A DNA stretch of 64,000 nucleotides from Octopus vulgaris (Eukaryota). A program made the position numbers and the translations under genes. Positions 9,973-62,394 of the stretch are shown one piece after another. Position 1 is the first letter of the stretch, and every line of letters begins with the position of its first letter. Below the pieces are notes generated by a model. The model was not told the DNA's origin, did no database searches, and worked only from the letters and a program-made list of their open reading frames with translations. Where the stretch lies: positions 72,788,001-72,852,000 of the forward strand of contig OX597824.1 of NCBI GenBank assembly GCA_951406725.2, written 5' to 3'.

Positions 9973-10123
9973 GTGGAATGTTCAAATATGTAACCGCTGC
10001 TAATTTATTTGGAGAAATAGTTGAATGGTGTGGCTTTGCTATTGCATGCTGGTCACTTCATGCTTCAGCATTTGCATTGAGCACATTCTGTGTACTTATC
10101 CCACGTAGCTACACTCATCACAA
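9973..10123 (+). CDS. SRD5A1: SRD5A1-like exon, 151 bp
   Basis: ttccag|...|gtaagt; GGMFKYVTAANLFGEIVEWCGFAIACWS...PRSYTHH matches the GGLFEYV..AN..GE..EW signature. Confidence 0.95.
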
Positions 10124-10324
10124 GTAAGTCATACTTTAACCATTCTTTCTTCTCTGTTTCTCTTTTTCTTGCTTCCTCTCTGTCTCTCTGTTACTGCATT
10201 TAGTTGTTTATGGCTATCAGCGATGTGATTTTGTTTGTTGTTACATGACTTTGTAAAGCCATGTAACATTGTATCATTTGCAGCTCTAAATAATGAAATT
10301 AGAAACTGTTACGACAAACTGTTT

Positions 10325-10630
10325 CATCATCATCATCGTTTAGCGTCCACTTTCCATGCTAGCATGGGTTGGACAGTTCAACTGAGCTCTGGGAAGCCAG
10401 AAGGCTGCACCAGGCCCAGTCTGATCTGGCAATGTTTCTATGGCTGGATGCCCTTCCTAACGTCAACCACTCTGTGAGTGTAGTGGGTGCTTTTTACGTG
10501 TCACCGCACAGGTGCCAGATGAGGCTGGCAAACAGCCACGGTCGGATGGTGCTTTTTACGTGCCACCGGCACGGGGGCCAGGCGAGGCTGGCAAACGGCC
10601 ACGGTCGGATGGTGCTTTTTACGTGCCATT
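10325..10630 (-). mobile_element. SINE family 2 ((GAT)n tail, internal ~50-bp tandem units)
   Basis: Core GGCGTTAGGAAGGGCATCCAGC and tail GGACGTTAAACGATGATG; further copies at about 12075-12520, 21275-21455, 23378-23622, 27805-28135, 29990-30205, 33487-33950, 35768-36127, 36860-37168, 39909-40272, 41500-41872, 41906-42215, 43375-43740, 57950-58348, 60520-60802 and 61695-62140. Confidence 0.85.
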
Positions 10631-10697
10631 TAAGAGATGAGGAATTATGTACATTATTTACATTCGACGGATATTTGTCCTCATCTTGTTTGTTGTT

Positions 10698-10743
10698 AAC
10701 ACAACGTTTCGGCTGATATACCCTCCAGCCTTCTTCAGATGTC
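10698..10743 (-). ncRNA. Minimal type I hammerhead ribozyme motif
   Basis: gacau-CUGAAGA-A-GGCUG(gaggguauau)CAGCC-GAAAC-GUU|guguu: full core, 5-bp helix II, palindromic ACGU helix III, helix I gacau/guguu. Confidence 0.75.
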
Positions 10744-10883
10744 TTGGGGAAATTTCGAACCTGGCGTCTCATTAACAACCTCCTAAGCAGACCGAGTGCA
10801 GATGTGAGCAGCATATGGGAACTGGTATTAAGGAAGGATAGAAGGATATTAGATTTATAAGCCCTGAAATTCACTCCATAATT

Positions 10884-10953
10884 GCCCATGGCGTAGTGGT
10901 TAAGAGCGTGGGCTACTAACCCCAAGATTATGAGTTCGATTCCAAGCAGTGAA
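10884..10953 (+). promoter_or_regulatory. tRNA-like internal Pol III promoter module
   Basis: A box TGGCGTAGTGGTTAAGAGCG, anticodon-like arm GTGGG-CTACTAA-CCCCA, B box GAGTTCGATTCC; acceptor stem not intact. Confidence 0.6.
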
Positions 10954-11067
10954 CTGAATAATAATAATAATAATGATAATGATGACGACGACAGTGACGG
11001 CGATGACAACGATGGTGACGATGAAGAATACCTTAGAAATGAGAACCCAAGTTCAAAATTTCCCCAA

Positions 11068-11113
11068 GACACCTGAAGAAGGCTGGAGGGTATATCAGCC
11101 GAAACATTGTGTT
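11068..11113 (+). ncRNA. Minimal hammerhead motif, helix III palindrome mutated
   Basis: gacac-CUGAAGA-A-GGCUG...CAGCC-GAAAC-AUU|guguu; ACGU changed to ACAU relative to the inverted partner. Confidence 0.65.
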
Positions 11114-11504
11114 AACAAGAAACAAGATGACAAATATCCGTTGAATGTAAATAATAGACTGTTTCATATCATCATTTCTGTAGTTGGTCTCTCTTCTCTG
11201 AGCAACACCTAATTAGCATCCTTCCCTCACCCTTATCATTGAAACCCACCCTCAATCACATTTATTGTTTACCAACTTCTGCAGAGTTGGTGTTAGGAAG
11301 GACATCCAGCTATAAAATTCCTGCCAAAACAGACGCAGTAGCCTAGGGTAGTTTTTCTACCTGGCCTGCTCTTGTCAACCATCCTACCCATGCATGGAAG
11401 ACGGACATTAAATGATCATGATGAGGATTGCATCCTATGACTACTGGAAATTTGCTCCAATAAATGAAAATTATGTAATTACCATGAATATATATATATA
11501 TATG

Positions 11505-11805
11505 TGGAGGTGCAATGGCCCAGTGGTTAGGACAGCGGACTCACGGTCATAGGATCGCGGTTTCAATTCCCAGATTGGGCGTTGTGAGTGTTTATTGAGC
11601 GAAAACACCTAAAAAGCTCCACAAGGCTCCGGCAGGGGATGGTGATCCCTGCTGTACTCTTTCACCACACTTTCTCTCACTCTTTCTTCTGTTGGCCTGC
11701 TCGCTTAGCCAGCGGGGTGGCGTCATTCAAAGGCTAAAACAATGCGAACGCATTGTGACCAGTGATGTGTAACAACATGGTCTGGTCGGTCACGTGATCA
11801 TGGTG

Positions 11806-11842: not shown

Positions 11843-12931
11843 TTTACTACTATATTTTTGGAAACTATGTGAGGGGGAAATAATTTGCAAATATACAAAC
11901 CAAAAAGCAGCTGTGGTGTTGCTAATTATTTTAAAATTGAAGTATCAGTATCTATCTAATTAGTTACCAAGAATTCATATAAGTACAAAACAGTTAACAG
12001 AAATAGTTAGAACTAGTAATCAAAGATTATAAATAATAAATTATAACATGATTATAAATAATAAACTTTAATGCGTGGCCTATACCAGGGGTGTAACCAG
12101 CCCACTTATGCGTACCTTTCCTTCATTGGACACTAAACGCTGCTTGCGAAGACCTGTTGAGGCAAGTGAAATCGAAATCAGATTCGATGACTGGCATCCG
12201 TGCTAGTGGAGCGCTAAGAGTACCATCCAAGCATGATCGGTGGCACGTAAAAAGCACCATTCGAGTGTGATCGTTACCTGTGTTGCCTTACTGGCACTTG
12301 TACTGGTGGCACATGAATAAACATTTGAGCGAGGTCGTTGCCAGTGCTGCTGGACTGGCTCCTGTGCAGGTAGCACATGAAGAACACCATTTGAGTGTGG
12401 CCGTTGCCTGTACCACCTGACTGGCTCTCGTGCCAGTGGCACATAAAAGCACCCACTACACTCTTGGAGTGGTTGGCATTAGGAAGGGCATCCAGCTGTA
12501 GAAACTCTGCCAGATCATGTATGTATGTGTATGTGGAAATTACTAGAAACTTGTGGACCCTATTGCAATGGAACAAGGCTATATAAATTGTGTATGGCAG
12601 AAAGATATATTATCCTCATGAACTCGCATGAGCCAGGAGGCTACCTGAACTCCAGGATGGAAGTGTGGGGAGTTGTCCATATTTTCGCAAATTTTAACTT
12701 CAGAATTGGAAAACATAGCTATCAAGCGAAGGAAGACAACTTGCCCGGCCATAATTTTTTAAGAGGAACATTTCTTGAACTATCACTGGCGTTCTTGTGT
12801 TTAAAAAAGCATTCTTTGCAGAGAACGGTTATCGTTTAGAGAAACTGCAGAAATGTCTAGTTCACGCTAGATATAAAACCAATGGTTTTTTTCTTAAACT
12901 ATTATGTTACACATACAAATATATATATATA

Positions 12932-14459: not shown

Positions 14460-16490
14460 TTAAGGGCTTGGGGCTTGTTTTTGCCTGGATGGACTTCTCA
14501 AGCACTGCAAATCACTAATCATCTCAGTCCTTTACATCTCTTCAGTGAGGTTCAGCATCTGGAAATCCTTCTTCACTACTTCATCCCATGTCTTTCTGGG
14601 ACTCCCTCTTTCACAGATTTCATTCACATTTAGTGATTCACACTTCTTTACACAACCCTCCTTATCTACATGCACACATGACCATATCAATGTGGTCTTC
14701 TCTCTTGCACATGATATCTGATTCCTCTTGTGCCCAATTTTTCTCTTAACACATATACACTTTGTTATATGTGGAGGCACATGGCCAAGTGGCTAGAGCA
14801 GTGGACTCGTGGTTGAGGGATCGTGGGTTCAAATCTCAGACCGGGCAATATGTGTGTTTATGAGCGAAACACCTAAGCTCCATGCGGCTCCGGCAGAAGA
14901 TGATGGTGAACGTCTGCCGACTCTTTTGCCACAACTTTCTCTCACTCTTTCCTCCTGCATCTTGCAGCTCACCAGCGACGGACCGGGAAACCAGCCCTTA
15001 TGAGCCAGATGTGGCTCGAGGAGGAAAGAACTTTGTCATATATTTACACTGACATAGCATATCCAGTGGAGCACGCTAAGCTTTGTTTCTTTCAAGCCTT
15101 CATATATCCTCTGTATTCAAAGCTCATGTTTTGTTACTATGTATCATTGTCATTCATACACATTCTGCCTTTTACTCTGGGAGAGAGAGACCTTTTATTG
15201 CCAACAGAGATAATAGCTCTTTGAACTTTTTCCATTCTATTCATATTCTAGCAACTATACTTTCAGAACATCCTCCTCCACTGCTAATCAAATCACCTAC
15301 ATAACAGAAACTATCCACAAACAATAGCGAGCCTTCAGGACATTTGAGAAAATTTATTTCCCATGTGTTTTTAGTGTTTATTGTTCCTGTGTGTCTTCCA
15401 CATACAAACACTAATTTTTCCATTAATCTTCTTGTGAATCCACTGTATTTATTGTATGTCCATAGCTTGCACTAGTTACACCATATGGAATTCCTGCCTT
15501 TTGGTTTGAACGGCAGTTTTTTCTAGCGGTGTCATATGAAATTGTCACCCATAATTATGACCCTAGTATCGATCTATTGCATTTCAATCTGTGTTAGGGT
15601 TAGGGTTAGGGGTGGGGGGAAGGGTATTTTTTTTTCTTCACAAATGTAAATAAACCCAATCTGTTTCTTAAATGAGGAACATATTCATACAGCACAGAAT
15701 GTTTTTTTACCTCAATAGACGTCAGTGATTGGTTGAGATTGCAGAAATTGAAGAAAAAAAACAACAAATATCTTACAAACTATAGAATTTTCTCAATAAA
15801 GCCAAGAGGAAAAGATGTTTTATAAACACATTCTACCAGTTTTAGTTACCTAGAAATTATGTTAAAAACTGCCATTCAAACTGAAAAGATCCCATTTACT
15901 GGAGTCTTACCTGTTTTCCTGTTTACTAGAACTTCAATCATTGTTAAGTTTACTTTAAGGCTTGGATTTTTTTTTTCTAATCTATTACAGATCCTGCTAT
16001 GAGAATGAGATCAGCATATAGTAGTTCTCAAGGGTAGTCATTCTTACATTCCTCTGTCAAAGCCTGAAGGAAAATGATGAATAGGAGTCTGAGAACCAAG
16101 CTGTGGTACTCCTACCTGAGCTCTAAATTCATCACAGTACTCATGGCTAACTCTCACCTTACTTGAACATGGCTTATATAACTTTCAGAAACCATTTGTT
16201 TACCCCTAGCTTCCTAAGAGGCCACCAGATCAGAGAACAGTGTATCCTGAAGAAGGCTTTCTTCAGATAAACAAATGCCAAGTTCAGTGACTCATTTTTA
16301 GATAGATTCTTCATCTGCAGTTGTCTTATCAAGAAAATGGTTTCAGTAGTACTAAATTGCATCTCATTTAATCTAATTCTGTTCCTAATTAGTTTGGCTA
16401 TAATTCACTCTGTAATTTTCAAAATCTGGTTCAGTAATTTGATATCTCTGTAATTATTACAACCTAAAGCATCTCCTTTACTCTTGCAGT
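14460..16490 (-). mobile_element. Fragmented RTE-like LINE ORF, interrupted by a SINE and a MITE
   Basis: Pieces translate to KGDALGCNNYRDIKLLNQILKI, LNLAFVYLKKAFFRI...LRKLGV, VDSFCYVGDLISSGGGCSESIVARI and RGSPRKTWDEVV; a + strand relative lies at about 26945-27150. Confidence 0.75.
15498..15893. mobile_element. Unclassified MITE with internal (TTAGGG)3
   Basis: TIR CTTTTGGTTTGAACGGCAGTTTTT / AAAAACTGCCATTCAAACTGAAAAG; inserted in the LINE remnant. Confidence 0.65.
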
Positions 16491-16690: not shown

Positions 16691-17089
16691 CATATATGTA
16701 TGTGTGTGTGTATATATATTTCTTTAAATTCTTTAAATTGTTTCAGCTTAAAAGCTGCAGTCATACTAGGGCACCGTCTTTGTAAAAATATACGAATTTG
16801 TATGTCATCCTTGCTCAGGGCCATGATTATCTTCTTTGTATTGTTCCAATTTTAGAATATGTACTGCCATACATACATATATATATAGTAATAAATATAT
16901 ATATATATATGATGGGCTTCTTTCAGTTTCCGTCTACCAAATCCACTCACAAGGCTTTGGTTGGCCCGAGGCTATAGTAGAAGACACTCGCCCGAGGTGT
17001 CATGCAGTGGGACTGAACCCGAAACCATGTGGTTGGTAAGCAAGTTACTTACCACACAGCCATATAATATATATATATATATATATAAA

Positions 17090-33194: not shown

Positions 33195-34375
33195 TACGTT
33201 TGGTCAAGCTTGCTCACCTCATTCCTATCTAGGCTTTATATTCAATGCCTATGTTTCATTAACATGCAGTTTTACTCTTTATATACAAACATCATACAAT
33301 CTGCTGCCCTTTACTCATCAGAATCCCTTAGATGCCAACAGAGGAAATAACTCCCCAAATCCTTTATACCTCAACCATATACTGGCCATTATGCTTTTGC
33401 AACATACACGTCTACTGTTAGATCATAGAGGTACAGATGCTATTACCTATTTCTACTGAGCTTTCTGAGCAAATGTGAGTCTTTTTATCATCATCATCAT
33501 CATTGTTTAGCGTCCGCTTTCCATGCTGGCATGGGTTGGACGGTTCAACTGGGGTCTGGGAAGCCAGAAGGCTGCACCAGGCCCAGTCTGATCTGGCAAT
33601 GTTTCTATGGCTGGATGCCCTTCCTAACGCCAACCACTCCATGAGTGTAGTGGATGCTTTTTACATGCCACCTGCACAGGTGCCAGGCGAGGCTGGCAAC
33701 GGCCACGATTGGGTGGTGCTTTTTACGTGCCACCGGCACGGAGGCCAGGCGAGGCTGGCAACGGCCACGATCAGATGGCGCTTTTTACGTGCCACCGGCA
33801 CGGAGGCCAGGAGAGGCTGGCAAACGGCCACGATTGGACGGTGCTTTTTACGTGCCACCGGCATGGAGGCCAGGAGAGGCTGGCAACGGCCACGATCGGA
33901 TGGTGCTTTTTACGTGCCACTTGCACGGAGGCAGTCGGGGCAGCGCCCACTCCTGTGAATCGGCTATAATTGAAGTCCCTTTTCTGACAACCTATCTGTG
34001 ATATCACAGCATTGCTTATGCACCCATTGTTTATACTGAGTGCACGGTTTAGAATTTCTACTGATTTCTTTTCTGCATATCAGTCATGGCATTTCTGAGA
34101 TAATAGTAAAAGCTTGTATTGTATCTTGCTAATGAAATCGTTTGTCTTTGCTATGCTTAATTTTAAACCTTTGATTGTGGGCTCTGTTTCCATGTTAGGG
34201 ACTTTTCCCCCAACCTTTTCAAATGATCAAGCTTGGGAAAATAGGTTGTTGACATAAAAGAGTTTCCATGAACAGCCAACCTTGTACTCCTACCTCTGTT
34301 ATGACCTGAAGAGCTAAAAGAAACAGAAAAGATTGAGAAACTGCTGCTAAATTCTTCACTTAAGTTGTTGCTAAA

Positions 34376-35625: not shown

Positions 35626-38600
35626 CTAAAACATAAGAAAAACAAACGTCAGTGTAAACTAATTATAGCAATATGTGTTACATTTTATAAGTAATTCACA
35701 GTAAAAATTATTGGCAAAAAAAAGAAAAGATAAAATGGAAAAGTGCAGTGTATCTCTCATTTATTTAAACCATCCGAACATGGTCGTTGCCAGCGCCGCC
35801 CCGACTGGACTCTGTGCCGGTGGCATGTGAAAAGCACCATCCAATCGTGGCTGTTGCCAGCCTCGTCTGGCCCCCGTGCCGGTGGCACGTAAAAAGCACC
35901 ATCCGATCATGGCTGTTTGCCAGACCCTTCTGGCACCTGTGCAGGTGGCACGTAAAAAGCACCCACTACACTCTCAGAGTGGTTGGCGTTAGGAAGGGCA
36001 TCCAGCCATAGAAACACTGCCAGATCAGACTGGGCCTGGCGCAGCCTTCTGGCTTCCCAGACCCCAGTTGAACCGTCCAACCCATGCTAGCATGGAAAAC
36101 AGACGTTAAACAATGATGATGATGATGTAATACTTCAAAGTATTTTGTCAGGCAACTCCACTGATTCTGCTATCCAGATCCTCCTATATTTTTTCTTTTC
36201 CGTGATGTACTGCATATTGGCCTGAAAACGGATAGTTTCAGTTACAAATCAGCTTTCCCATGTTCAACCGTTCTTTATTTGTGAAGAAAAGGACCTTGTG
36301 AATGGCCTCTCACGACCCTTCTTATATAGCACATCATAGCCAAATCCTGGAGAAAATTGACCCCAGGTACTTTACTGAATCCAGAAGGATGAAAAGCAAA
36401 ATTAGCCATGTTAGAATTTGAGCTGGAACAAATACTGCTTGGAATTGTATCTGAGGTTTTAATTACTCTACCAATATTTTGCCTGTCCTAGTATATTGCT
36501 GGTACCTAAATCAAGAATTTGTTGCATAATATACCGTATTTGTCTATGCTACTTAAATATATGCCACTGGCCACTTTGAGTTATCTCTCTTAGCTTATTT
36601 TTTGTTTAAATTAAGCAAATTACCTGGACCATAAAAGTTTTCTACTCTTTTTCGTATAACTCTAAGTCCCTTGGCTACTGGAGATGAGGTTGGAAAATCG
36701 TTGTGTTGATAACAGTTATTGAACCAGAAACACATGTCTATGACTGTCCTCTTATCTCCAGACAATAAGCTTGTTCTTCTCCTTAGTACATGGCAACTTT
36801 GGAGAATTCTTATTCTTAAGATTATCTCTCCATCTCAATTTAGTAATTAGGTAATTTGGCCTCATAGAGGTAATGATAAATAACCGAGACCTTTGGCAAT
36901 ATGCTGTGCTTGAGTAGAAGACCCATAAAGCCAAGTGAAACAGTCGTGGCAGATACTGGCGTCATGCAACTGGCACCTGTGCTGGTGGCACATAAAAGCA
37001 CCCATTACACTCTTGGAGTGGTTGGCGTTAGGAAGGGCATCCAGTTGTAGAAACCATGCTAAATCAGACTGGAGTCTGGTGCAGTCCCTCAATTTACCAG
37101 CCCTGGTCAAACCATGCAACCCATGCCAGCATGGACAATGGACGTTAAATGTAGATGATGATGATGACACAATCCCTTGAGATGGAGATAATATTAATAA
37201 ATCAAGAATTTATGTTGTATAGTGTTTAACATACTTGTATTTTGTTTGTTACTCAAATATATGCTCACAGGCCACTGAGTTATTTCTCTTAGTTTGTTTT
37301 TGTTTAAATTATGCAGGTCAACCCCGGCAGATTTTTAACTTGGAATGTGAAGGGAAGTAACTAAATTAAATTGGAAATCTCCATCAATTCTGTTGTTCAC
37401 TGAAACACATTCTTTTATTCTTTTACTTGCTTCACTCATTTGACTGTGGCCATGCTGGAGCACCACCTTGAAGAGTTTTAGTCGAACAAATCGCCCCCAG
37501 GACTTATCTTTTATCAAGCCTTGTTCTATCAGCGTCTTTTGCCGAACTGCTAAGTTACAGGAATGTAAACACACCAACACCAGTTGTCGAGTGGTGATGG
37601 GGAGGACACACACACACACACACATATATACATACATAACATGAGATTCTTTCAGTTTCTGTCTACCAAATGCACTCACAAGGCTTTGGTCAGCCTGAGG
37701 CTATAGTAGAAGACACCTAAGGTGTCATGCAATGGGACTGAACCCAAAACCATGTGGTTGGGAAGCAAGCTTCTTACTGCACGGCCATACCTGCGCTTAT
37801 GTTCATTAATTTAATCCCATGACCTTTTTAATTGTATCATTCTCTGCACAAGTTTTGTGCCTATGCTGGAAATATAGACACAGGGCCAGAAACTTTGGAG
37901 AATCAGCTGAATAAACTGACTCTAGGACTTGACTGTCACTTTATTTTGTTGAAACCCCAAAAGGGCAAAAATCAAAGCTGACTTTTAGCAGGAGCAAATA
38001 CTGTAAAGCTTTTAATTATATATTTCTTTATTGCCCACAAGGGGCTAAACATAGAGGGGACAAACAAGGACAGACAAAGGAATTAAGTCAATTACATCGA
38101 CCCCAATGTGAAACTGGTACTTATTTATCGACCCCGAAAGAATGAAAGGGAAAGTCGACTTCGGCTGAATTTGAACTCAGAACGTAATGACAGGAGAAAT
38201 ATTGCTAACTATTTCGCCTGGCGTGCTAACGTTTCTGCCAGCTCGCCGCCCTTTATAATGGGTTTTAACATTGCCAGAAGGGTAAAAATATTAAAGACAA
38301 GTATAGTTGATTGGCATTAACACTATCATCATCATTTACCGTCTGTCTTCCATACTGGCATGGGTTGGACGGTTTGACAGGAGCTGGCCACGTAGAAAAC
38401 TACAGCAGGCTACACTGTCTGTTTTGGCAGGGTTTTTTACAGTTGGATGCCCTTCCTAACATCAACCTCCAGGTAGTGTGGAATAAGTGCTTCAACATTT
38501 CCAGCATATAAGCAAACTGTATATTAATCTTTTATGTAAAATATTAACCCTTTAGTGTTCAGATGATTCAATCAAACATAATGCCTATTGATTCCCATTG

Positions 38601-42737: not shown

Positions 42738-44640
42738 CTGTATAAAATAATAGAGAAAAGTTTCACTGATTAAGGGGAAAAAAAGGTACACAAATAATAA
42801 GACTGAAAAAGATGGGAGCTGGAAAAAGAAAAAACCCAAATAATAAGCGAAGGAGTGGCTGTATGGTAAGTAGCTTGCTTACGAACCACATGGTTCCAGG
42901 TTCAGTTCCACTGCGTGACACCTTGGGCAAGTGTCTTCTACTATAGCCTCAGGCCCACCAAAGCCTTGTGAGTGGATCTGGTAGATGGAAACTGAAAGAA
43001 GCCCATCGTATATATGTATAAATATATATATATATATGTGTGTGTGTGTATGTGTATACGTTTTTGTGTCTGTGTTTGTCCCCCCAACATCGCTTGACAA
43101 CCGATGCTGGTGTGATCTTTAAAACATTTGTTTTATGAATTTGTGAGAGTAAAGTGAGTAGTGCCTATGATATTTCACAGATCTCTGGAACTGGTGATGG
43201 TGTCTGGAGCCATGCAGAAAGAAACCATGACTTGTGAGTTGATGCAGTAAGAAGCAGAATACTAAAATGTTGAATTATCTTGGTTAAATAGCTGTTAAAA
43301 ATGGAAGTAGAGAAGTATTGGGAAAGTGACAGTACTGATCTTAAAGCCCTCTATGTTCTCAGTTCAAATCCCATTCATCATCATTGTTTAACGTCTGTTT
43401 TCCATGCTAGCATGGGTTGGACGGTTCGACCGGGGTCTGGGAAGCCAGGAGGCCGCACCAGGCTCCAGTCTGATCTGGCAGTGTTGTAACAGCTGGATGC
43501 CCTTCCTAACGCCAACTATTCCGTGAGTGTAGTGGGTGCTTTTTACATGCCACCGGCACAAGGCCCAGAGGAGACTAGCAAACGGTTGGTGCTTTTATGT
43601 GTCACCGACATGGATGCCAGTCAGGTGACGCTGGCATCTGCTACGTTTGGACAGTGCTTGTTACGTGTCACCGGCATGGGTATCTTAACTACAATTTCCA
43701 TTTGATCATTAATTTGATGTTGGTGTTGACGTACTTGACTCAATAGGTCTCCTCGAGAACAGCGGGTCGCTCTACGATCCAAGGTTAGCCCAGCAGGCTG
43801 TCCTGCAAGCCATGAACTCACTTCATTTGTCAGGTCTTCATAGTCACAGCATATCTCAGAGGTTTTGGTCTTCGTCATTTCCTCCGTGAGGCCCAACATA
43901 CCACCGGCACGGGTATCACAACTACAATATCCATAAGATTTTTATTTTGAAGTTGATGAACTTGACACAATAGGTCTCCTCAAGCACAGCAGGCCGTCCT
44001 GCAAGCCATTAACTCACTTCATTTGTCGGGTCTTCATAGTCACAGCTTATCTCCAGAGGTCTCGGTCTTTCGGCAGAGCCTCTGTGAGGCTCAGCGTACG
44101 AAGGTCCTTTCATATTTATCCTTCTGTAGTGGTAGTAGTAATAGTGCATTGCTGCATCCACCATTTGCTGACGATTCCCTATTCTTGGTGGATGACCCAA
44201 GTGACAACTCTTCAACCCATTTATGTAGTCATTGCTGGTGACAGTTTTATGAAGTTGGAATGCAAATCCTACCTCAACCTTTTTTAGTTGCCTTTTTCGA
44301 CATGCAGAGCAAATAATTGGGTCTATTCTTTGACATGCCAATCGCCACACAGCAACTAGAGCAACATGAGATGAAGTGTTTTACTCAAGAATATGACATG
44401 CTGCCCAGTCCAGGAATCGAAACCACGATCTAGCGATCGAGGATGCAACACCCTAATCACTAGGACATGCAGCTTCACTGGGTTTTCACTTCTGGAGTTG
44501 ATTAAATATCGCTTCTATTGTAGAATAGTCAAGTAAGATAATTAAAGTAATGTGTACATAAAATAATAAATTCTAAATAATAATTAGTGACAGAAGCATT
44601 ATCAATAAATTTAAAAACTCATTTAAATAAAAAAAAAAGG

Positions 44641-44674
44641 CACGTTTCTGCCTTACTGGGCATCATCAGAAGCA
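44641..44674 (-). ncRNA. Truncated hammerhead core
   Basis: CUGAUGA-UGCC(cagUAa)GGCA-GAAAC-GUG; canonical core and helix II, but a GUG triplet and no helix I partner. Confidence 0.45.
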
Positions 44675-44874
44675 AGTACTACACCCTTCAAGGCAGTGCC
44701 CCAGCATGGCCTTAGTTCAATGACTGAAACTAGTACAAAACGCGTGTATGTGTACATACATAGGACAATTTAAAATTAATGGAATATTTGCAAATTCCCA
44801 ACATTTGACAAACTACACAAACACAATGCAATATTTGGGAATAATAATAATAATAATAATTCCTTCTTCTTTAG

Positions 44875-61130: not shown

Positions 61131-62394
61131 TAAAGTAACATTTCATTCCATCTTTCTTTTTCCTTTTTCCTCAGTGAACATTCAGAAGTTTGCATTTATA
61201 TCTTGGCCACTGAAACTATCCTCTATCTTAGCTTAGTTGCATGGTTTTGGTGAGTGCAGTTTGAGTGGTGATGGTTTGTAATCTATAAATGTCTTGATTG
61301 AATGATTCATTTTTGCTTCCTTATTATTCTCTGACTAAACCCAGACAAATACCATGCAATAGTTCTTCTGGTTTTGTTTTTTGTTCTGCATTCAGATGCT
61401 GCTGAGGTCAACTTGGCCTTTGATTCTTTTGGGTTTGGTGGAAGGGGGGGGGGGTGTCAATAAATGCCAATCTGTGCTACCATGCAGTGAACTAGTATCG
61501 TACAGTAGAATCCCCAGATCTCTATACAACCATGGGGCTCTGATAGATGAAATGACATCAGTTGGAGTACATTGTTGTTACATCTATGTTGTCATGCACA
61601 TACACATATATATCCAGTCATTCACTCATGCATGTGTGTATATATAATATATATATATATATTTACACACACACACACACACTCTCTTAAATTGACTCCA
61701 ATCTGATCTGGCAGAGTTTCTACAGCTGGATGCCCTTCCTAATGCCAACCATTCCGAGAGTGTAGTGGGTGCTTTTACATGCCACTGGCACGAGGGCCAA
61801 TCAGGTGGTACTGGCAACAGCTGCGCTCAAGTGGTGTTTTTTACGTGCCACCTGCACAGGAGCCAGTCCAGTGGCACTAGCAATGACCTCACTTTTTTCA
61901 TGTGCCACTGGCACAAGTGCCAGTAAGGCGACGCTGGTAACGATCACGTTTGAATGGTGCTTTTTACGTGCCACCGGCACAGAAACCAGTCAGCTGCTCT
62001 GGCAGCAATCACGCTCGGATGGTGCTCTTAGCACTCCACTGGCACAGGTGCCAGTCATTGAATTTGATTTGATTTCAATTTCACTTGCCTCAACAGGTCT
62101 TCTCAAGCAGAGTTTAGTGTCCACTGAAGGAATGGTGACAGTATTTATGTCCCATGTACTCAAAAATGCTGGCAGCTTGACATTTCATGTGAAGTCATGT
62201 GGAATAATGTACTCTAGCTGAAGCAAAGGTCAGGAAGGGCACCCAATTGTAAAATATCGTATCAAATCTTATCCATCATGGAAATGCACACATAAATTCT
62301 GTGTGATGCCACTCACTGAACATAGGTTATGTAACCTATTTTATTTTGGTTGTCTTATAAGTTGCTTCAATATTGTTGTACTTTTATTATACAG

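Follow-up and report, generated by a model that had tools for sequence, protein, structure and literature searches.

A Penelope-like retroelement of Octopus vulgaris whose pseudo-LTR opens with a tRNA-Arg-like module, a putative RNA polymerase III promoter

The window analyzed here is a 64-kb stretch of Octopus vulgaris DNA (assembly GCA_951406725.2, contig OX597824.1, positions 72,788,001 to 72,852,000, forward strand), and positions are counted from its first letter. Near its start lies a dead, long-type, truncated head-to-head copy of an autonomous Penelope/Poseidon element, a Penelope-like element (PLE) whose pseudo-long terminal repeat (pseudo-LTR, pLTR) opens with a tRNA-like module, a putative RNA polymerase III (Pol III) promoter. 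The locus comprises, in order, an inverted arm, 28 codons with a stop, a module containing A and B boxes, a spacer of (AAT)/(GAY)n, and another arm. All these parts had been listed in the same order by an earlier sequence-only reading, which placed them from 10634 to 11155; the end stands, but the start was set too short, and the minus-strand arm extends 6 nt further, to 10628. The features, with open reading frame (ORF), reverse transcriptase (RT), and untranslated region (UTR) abbreviated, are as follows.

10628..10773, minus strand: second arm, inverted and 5'-truncated; ORF start with hammerhead, plus most of the optional ~30-nt 3' tail
10698..10743, minus strand: predicted minimal type I hammerhead; AACGTT palindrome unbroken, C3 at 10738, cleavage predicted after 10703
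10774..10860, plus strand: ORF end of the RT-GIY-YIG protein; last 28 codons, TAA at 10858-10860, 5'-truncated here
10861..10888, plus strand: short 3' UTR plus the 5' arm of the family's palindrome (–14 to +9)
10884..10957, plus strand: tRNA-Arg-like module with a degenerate cloverleaf; A box at 10889-10899 and B box at 10934-10942; putative promoter where the pseudo-LTR begins, from similarity and the pileup of copy 5' ends
10957..11025, plus strand: (AAT)n/(GAY)n spacer; length in the family varies from about 9 to >400 nt
11039..11155, plus strand: element ORF start; ATG at 11039, 39 codons, finishing at the short 3'-end class without tail
11068..11113, plus strand: predicted minimal type I hammerhead within the ORF start; C3 at 11073, helices I and II of 5 and 6 bp (the latter with a bulged A), cleavage predicted after U17 at 11108
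9973..10124, plus strand: host exon (context) of a steroid 5-alpha-reductase-type gene (PF02544, E 3e-14), ending in a GT donor

The two inverted arms (10653-10773 and 11038-11155) share 91% identity, both have the latest-looking A/A haplotype of the family, and only the minus arm retains the optional 3' tail. A hammerhead-core scan of the window gave three matches, at 11073 (plus), 10738 (minus), and 44669; the last, at 44640-44680 on the minus strand, is unrelated in sequence and is followed by a T run. Two lesions had escaped the sequence-only reading: an 8-nt deletion that takes out the tRNA 5' end, and CpG decay that has turned the palindrome AACGTT of the plus ribozyme into AACATT. Because the copy starts inside the ORF, 116 nt upstream of the tRNA, it derives from a long transcript. 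It lies directly 3' of the steroid 5-alpha-reductase-type exon, likely in its intron.

The 2.8-Gb genome holds 3,523 exact matches to the 28-nt ribozyme core and 11,518 to a 19-mer just past it, hence at least 11,518 arms, with no match to either reversed control; the existence of thousands of family copies is a further reason why the structure in the window is beyond chance. Long copies extend upstream into a nuclease domain and RT; RVT_1 scores above cutoff in real copies, and there are 270 longer homologues. The longest stop-free copy (L328) is 37% identical over 569 amino acids, spanning RT and the C-terminal nuclease region, to protein P0057 of Anolis carolinensis, which we take to be Poseidon_Ac (PAc)-like; this similarity suggests that the family belongs to the Poseidon clade. 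Since the Pfam GIY-YIG profile has no match in this family, the nuclease assignment rests on the alignment and on sequence motifs. The ribozyme arm is the N terminus of the ORF: it is open for about 40 codons from an ATG 34 nt before C3, runs on into the ORF in real copies, and aligns with the N terminus of an intact 847-amino-acid homologue (P0004). The unit thus reads tRNA module, (AAT)n, ATG, hammerhead, RT, GIY-YIG, stop, and tRNA module again, and three copies cover the ORF from R118-149 (family numbering) to its end or nearly.

The pseudo-LTR includes the ORF start, partial tandem or inverted arms are present, and family 3' ends fall into two clusters (R143-150 and R172-177) about 30 nt apart, as with the optional 30- to 40-nt tail of Penelope-like elements. 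The hammerhead in the pLTR has a palindromic helix III, and its core, bulged base, 6-bp helix II, and 5-bp helix I fit the description in PMC4209133. By every feature tested, the family is a Penelope-like element (PMC4209133, PMC8557442), with a non-CpG divergence of about 4.5%. The Penelope-like identity, minimal type I hammerhead, and inverted partial pseudo-LTR proposed from the window alone are therefore borne out, and the RT-GIY-YIG partner postulated with them does exist, except that it is the same element and not a separate one.

Three further observations concern family copies and their surroundings. At L371 (G000:C4:111713570-111716600), the ORF end is joined straight to R153 of the ORF start, with the tRNA module and ribozyme left out between them, which is likely a template switch. 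Copies near 7.93, 8.94, and 9.05 Mb of G000:C1 are duplicated together with their flanks at ~95% identity and are segmental duplicates. More minimal-hammerhead-like motifs, belonging to other sequence families, lie near fetched copies at L141, L193, L199, and L007.

The A and B boxes of the module (10889-10899 and 10934-10942) form one of only two strict pairs found in the window with the consensus used for the scan. Aligned with tRNA-Arg of this genome, the module scores 60, whereas 300 shuffles reach at most 42; tRNA-Arg is its best match among 21 tRNA calls, which sample only six isotypes. ARAGORN calls no tRNA at the module, and Rfam, at gathering thresholds and at E<=5, reports neither tRNA nor hammerhead at the window element; A and B boxes are retained though the cloverleaf is lost. 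The module follows the stop codon in 22/22 protein-selected copies that reach the stop and is at least partly present in 29/30 copies anchored just upstream, so the constancy that the sequence-only reading had named as its check is found, and a one-off SINE (short interspersed element) insertion is rejected. A ribozyme arm lies downstream in 25 of 30 module-anchored loci; the other five share no alternative body (two resemble duplicates of one insertion), and a free-standing SINE with another body is rejected as well. Because the module follows the stop and is followed by the ribozyme arm, it stands directly ahead of the ORF start in the tandem, pseudo-LTR layout. Elsewhere in the window, other tRNA-headed SINE-like repeats with A/B-box-like motifs occur at 14782 (plus) and ~11505-11580; by BLAST they are unlike this module.

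The 5' ends of copies were read from samples that follow genome order, beginning where contig C1 begins: 86 ribozyme-core matches out of the first 100 (the last ten and a few merged neighbors being left out), 30 module matches, and 99 arms from the first 100 matches to a third anchor. Among 72 unselected arms that cover the A box, 62 were classed as short and 10 as long by a script; three of the 62 reach –20 or –26 relative to the tRNA start, or prove to be long copies carrying a deletion. The remaining 59 of 72 have their 5' ends in the interval from –8 to +12, most often at –7 (11 arms) and at the first tRNA nucleotide, G1 (10 arms). Truncation upstream proceeds at 0.0029 per nt, from which ~90% of arms would be expected to pass the tRNA start, whereas only 10 to 13 of 72 do. 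The third anchor, differently placed and giving a partly overlapping sample, has 35 arms at the tRNA start versus six long ones, and of two 18-mers 50 nt apart, the one inside the module has 6,004 exact matches genome-wide versus 1,090 for the one just upstream. The same edge appears in ORF-bearing copies: at the ribozyme-ORF junction (30 of 38 loci), the module lies upstream in sense in seven, five of which start at –8 to +4; two of these five, L370 and L385, reach 340 and 175 nt into the ORF body. None of the seven has ORF-end sequence ahead of the module, and the tRNA edge is therefore as far 5' as ORF-bearing copies were seen to reach. RNA 5' ends near the tRNA start, which the sequence-only reading had proposed, are implied by these copy ends. 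As in SINE2 elements, the head is tRNA-derived with A and B boxes, and copies start at its 5' end. Because most copies start at the tRNA signal, the element is likely read by Pol III.

Short and long copies are from the same masters. Their non-CpG divergence is equal (0.045 versus 0.045, p 0.92), and three two-site haplotypes, defined by linked variants at ribozyme position 7 (CUGAUGA/CUGAAGA) and module position 63 (G/A) and resembling successive masters, are common to both (29/12/14 versus 23/9/13). No site convincingly separates the two classes (2 of ~250 columns at p<0.03, both CpG), and a separate short subfamily is rejected. Unlike a SINE2 with its own non-autonomous lineage, the short copies thus have the head, age, and haplotypes of the autonomous element. 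Neither does the ribozyme delimit them. No arm out of 151 has its end at the cut; copies extend 50 to 85 nt beyond it, and the cut site is read through in 94/99 arms; the other five begin at R90-97, beside the predicted cut at R92 (versus 0/94 in the preceding 20 nt), which is a weak hint of some cleavage. Core columns are 69 to 100% conserved in ~108 arms, and cofolding did not yield a catalytic dimer fold. U17 is the least favored cleavage base, which speaks against a unit defined by self-cleavage. A retrozyme, by contrast, is a noncoding monomer bounded by the cut and arranged in tandem arrays, and here the ribozyme segment is coding. The separate non-autonomous SINE/retrozyme and the ~225-nt unit ending at the ribozyme cut, both proposed from the window alone, are accordingly not supported.

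Pol III terminates at runs of four or more T. The 2,631-nt family majority sequence has no such run in its sense strand, whereas codon shuffles of the ORF lead to expectations of 3.0 (p 0.021) and 2.7 (p 0.030); runs of three T are not depleted. In real copies, runs of four are minority changes (pooled, 39 versus 90 expected, from copies that are not independent). The same genome contains a second PLE family, matched in base composition, with 8 to 9 runs per 2.35 kb, and four LINE-like (long interspersed element-like) families have 25 in 6,840 nt (1.7 to 5.3 per kb). The 30 best matches to homologue P0001 all belong to the present family, and the PLE control is a distant family rather than a tRNA-less Poseidon. 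The T-run signal offers a modest fit to full-length Pol III transcription.

That second PLE family (L297-L326, e.g., L309; first seen at L253:5409-6287) is itself young, with 97 to 98% identity between copies, 2,967 candidates, and stop-free frames of ~780 amino acids. Behind its ORF, the 3' region has a tandem array of ATTGG and TGACGTC motifs, CCAAT/CRE-like, that resembles a modular Pol II promoter.

Our favored reading of the sequence evidence, held with evenly divided confidence, is that the pseudo-LTR starts with a captured tRNA-Arg-like A/B-box Pol III promoter, which would start the template RNA, and that this RNA runs through the ORF. More tentatively, and with doubt outweighing conviction, we propose that the whole ~2.7-kb RNA of an autonomous element may be made by Pol III, purged of T runs, and translated without a cap, while internal starts by the RT would spin off SINE-like copies. 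Transcription would begin at about –7/+1 of the tRNA and cross the whole ORF into the downstream repeat, a passage open to Pol III because the sense strand has no four-T terminator. The RT-endonuclease would then nick DNA, and the cDNA would begin at two internal sites, ~90 and ~120 nt past C3 of the hammerhead. From the upstream site, it would run off at the RNA 5' end after ~270 to 300 nt, giving SINE-like short copies, about five for each long copy; from the downstream site, it would give long, randomly truncated copies such as the plus arm in the window. Owing to the self-complementary 5' end, the cDNA may fold back on itself to prime inverted copies, and the hammerhead, mostly uncut in templates, is predicted to require a dimer or the element's protein. 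The model rests on work on the PAc element of the anole, whose RT starts internally in vitro at two sites that define an optional tail, whose ORF starts in the hammerhead, and in which ribozyme mutants do not block insertion (PMC11167929).

Several observations weigh against this reading. RNA sequencing (RNA-seq; one study, three runs, possibly from another species) shows no pileup of read starts or ends at the module, and reads are about equal on both strands, declining toward the ORF start as copy number does. The samples of arms overlap partly, the unselected ones were all drawn from the first part of contig C1, and arms that belong to the same insertion are not independent. Among the fetched loci, a search that was not exhaustive turned up no intact pLTR-ORF-pLTR master. 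The absence of T runs is less striking under a dinucleotide shuffle (p 0.064), and L328, the longest stop-free real copy, has three such runs, a chance level. Low phenylalanine is a trait of the clade, and the contrast with the control families is partly one of amino acid composition because close relatives are also Phe-poor. Finally, the palindrome from –14 to +9 overlaps the tRNA start and forms a hairpin (–9.6 kcal/mol) stronger than any other 26-nt one in the last 850 nt, and palindromes are found at the 5' ends of rotifer PLE pseudo-LTRs (PMC3846280).

Among the alternatives, the one that survives best, though we consider it unlikely, divides the labor between two polymerases: the tRNA module would be a working Pol III promoter for short and medium RNAs only, from which the short copies arise, and the ORF mRNA and long copies would come from Pol II, through host read-through or a nearby start. 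It accounts for the 5' wall equally well and needs no translation of uncapped RNA; family reads are indeed plentiful as passengers on both strands, and Kojima argues that TRIMs driven by Pol III must have autonomous partners that rely on Pol II (PMC10886601). Such a division, however, does not predict an ORF free of four-T runs, there is no terminator near the ORF start to limit RNA length, and copies extend from the tRNA start far into the ORF. Less probable still is that the hairpin makes the wall, the module being a passenger SINE fragment fixed in the UTR of the master and the RT stalling, or the cDNA snapping back, at the palindrome. The palindrome is the most stable local hairpin, fold-back junctions lie at the site in 16/62 short arms, and palindromic pLTR ends with self-priming have been described (PMC3846280). 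Yet a stall predicts ends at the 3' foot of the hairpin (+9/+10), whereas the modes are at –7 and G1; in 17 arms where no inversion was detected, the start likewise falls at –7 to +7, for six of them precisely at G1; similar hairpins (–9.1 at +15 and –8.4 at the ribozyme) make no wall; and the intact A and B boxes and T-run-free strand are left unexplained. The independent Pol III-driven SINE/retrozyme of the sequence-only reading, self-cleaved to a ~225-nt RNA and mobilized in trans like the hammerhead SINEs of schistosomes, agrees with the short, tRNA-headed majority of arms, the conserved core, and the five starts beside the cut, but it is disfavored and highly improbable, given the lack of diagnostic positions, the age and haplotypes in common with long copies, the read-through of the cut, and short copies whose ends coincide with the RT start sites and which may be missing the downstream segment needed for binding by the anole protein (PMC11167929).

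Two other features of the window stand apart from the element. A 62- to 66-nt tandem repeat within another abundant interspersed repeat occurs at 10486-10628, 12239-12453, 33655-33932, 35800-35963, and 61904-62057, and the element adjoins one of these arrays. A U6 snRNA-like copy scoring 64 bits, probably a pseudogene, lies at 16784-16876 on the minus strand; it carries substitutions and has a deletion at its 3' end.

Pol III transcription of a protein-coding retrotransposon would be unusual; R2, for comparison, is cotranscribed by Pol I. Autonomous retroelements are expected to use Pol II, and Pol III promoters to mark short non-autonomous ones (PMC10886601). A Penelope element whose pseudo-LTR has a tRNA promoter at its edge would break this split. 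If the favored reading is true, a SINE head and its reverse transcriptase reside in one element, which offers a concrete route for SINE-like elements to arise from a PLE, and the copies are a genomic record of pseudo-LTR formation by run-off from an internal RT start to the RNA 5' end. A literature search by title and abstract start, with the repeat databases Repbase and Dfam and subscription journals outside its scope, found no autonomous PLE described as having a tRNA or Pol III promoter, and the available part of an octopus repeat paper (PMC13282606) makes no mention of a tRNA promoter in one.

Compared with known systems, the octopus element most nearly resembles Poseidon_Ac of the green anole, which also has a single ORF with RT and C-terminal GIY-YIG, a hammerhead overlapping the ORF start, two 3'-end classes ~30 nt apart, an inverted truncated arm, and a hammerhead that is uncut in most templates; unlike PAc, for which the available text mentions no such module, its pseudo-LTR opens with a tRNA-derived A/B-box module, copies show a sharp 5' wall there, and its sense strand is free of four-T runs (PMC11167929). 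The Penelope families of Adineta vaga likewise have a pLTR that includes the first ORF codons, an optional 31-bp tail, a palindrome at the pLTR 5' end, and inverted junctions, there ascribed to self-priming, but they have a putative TATA/Inr promoter of the Pol II type, and the words "tRNA" and "polymerase III" are absent from the available text (PMC3846280). A Pol III promoter is combined with a type I hammerhead in the Sm-alpha and Sj-alpha SINEs of schistosomes; these are noncoding tandem repeats whose ribozyme releases monomers (PMC6765202), whereas the octopus module belongs to a protein-coding element whose copies read through the cut site. The TRIMp3 elements (Cassandra, Helenus, and Ajax) similarly carry a small-RNA-derived Pol III promoter, as is putative here, inside a retroelement terminal repeat, but they are non-autonomous LTR elements of at most ~1.3 kb (PMC10886601), and the carrier in octopus is an autonomous PLE with an ORF of ~2.4 to 2.5 kb. 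Like tRNA-derived SINEs (SINE2) and metazoan non-LTR retrozymes, the short copies resemble a tRNA head joined to the recognition end of a partner; in contrast to both, they form neither a separate lineage nor tandem ribozyme-bounded monomers, and their head is also that of the autonomous element (PMC7761336).
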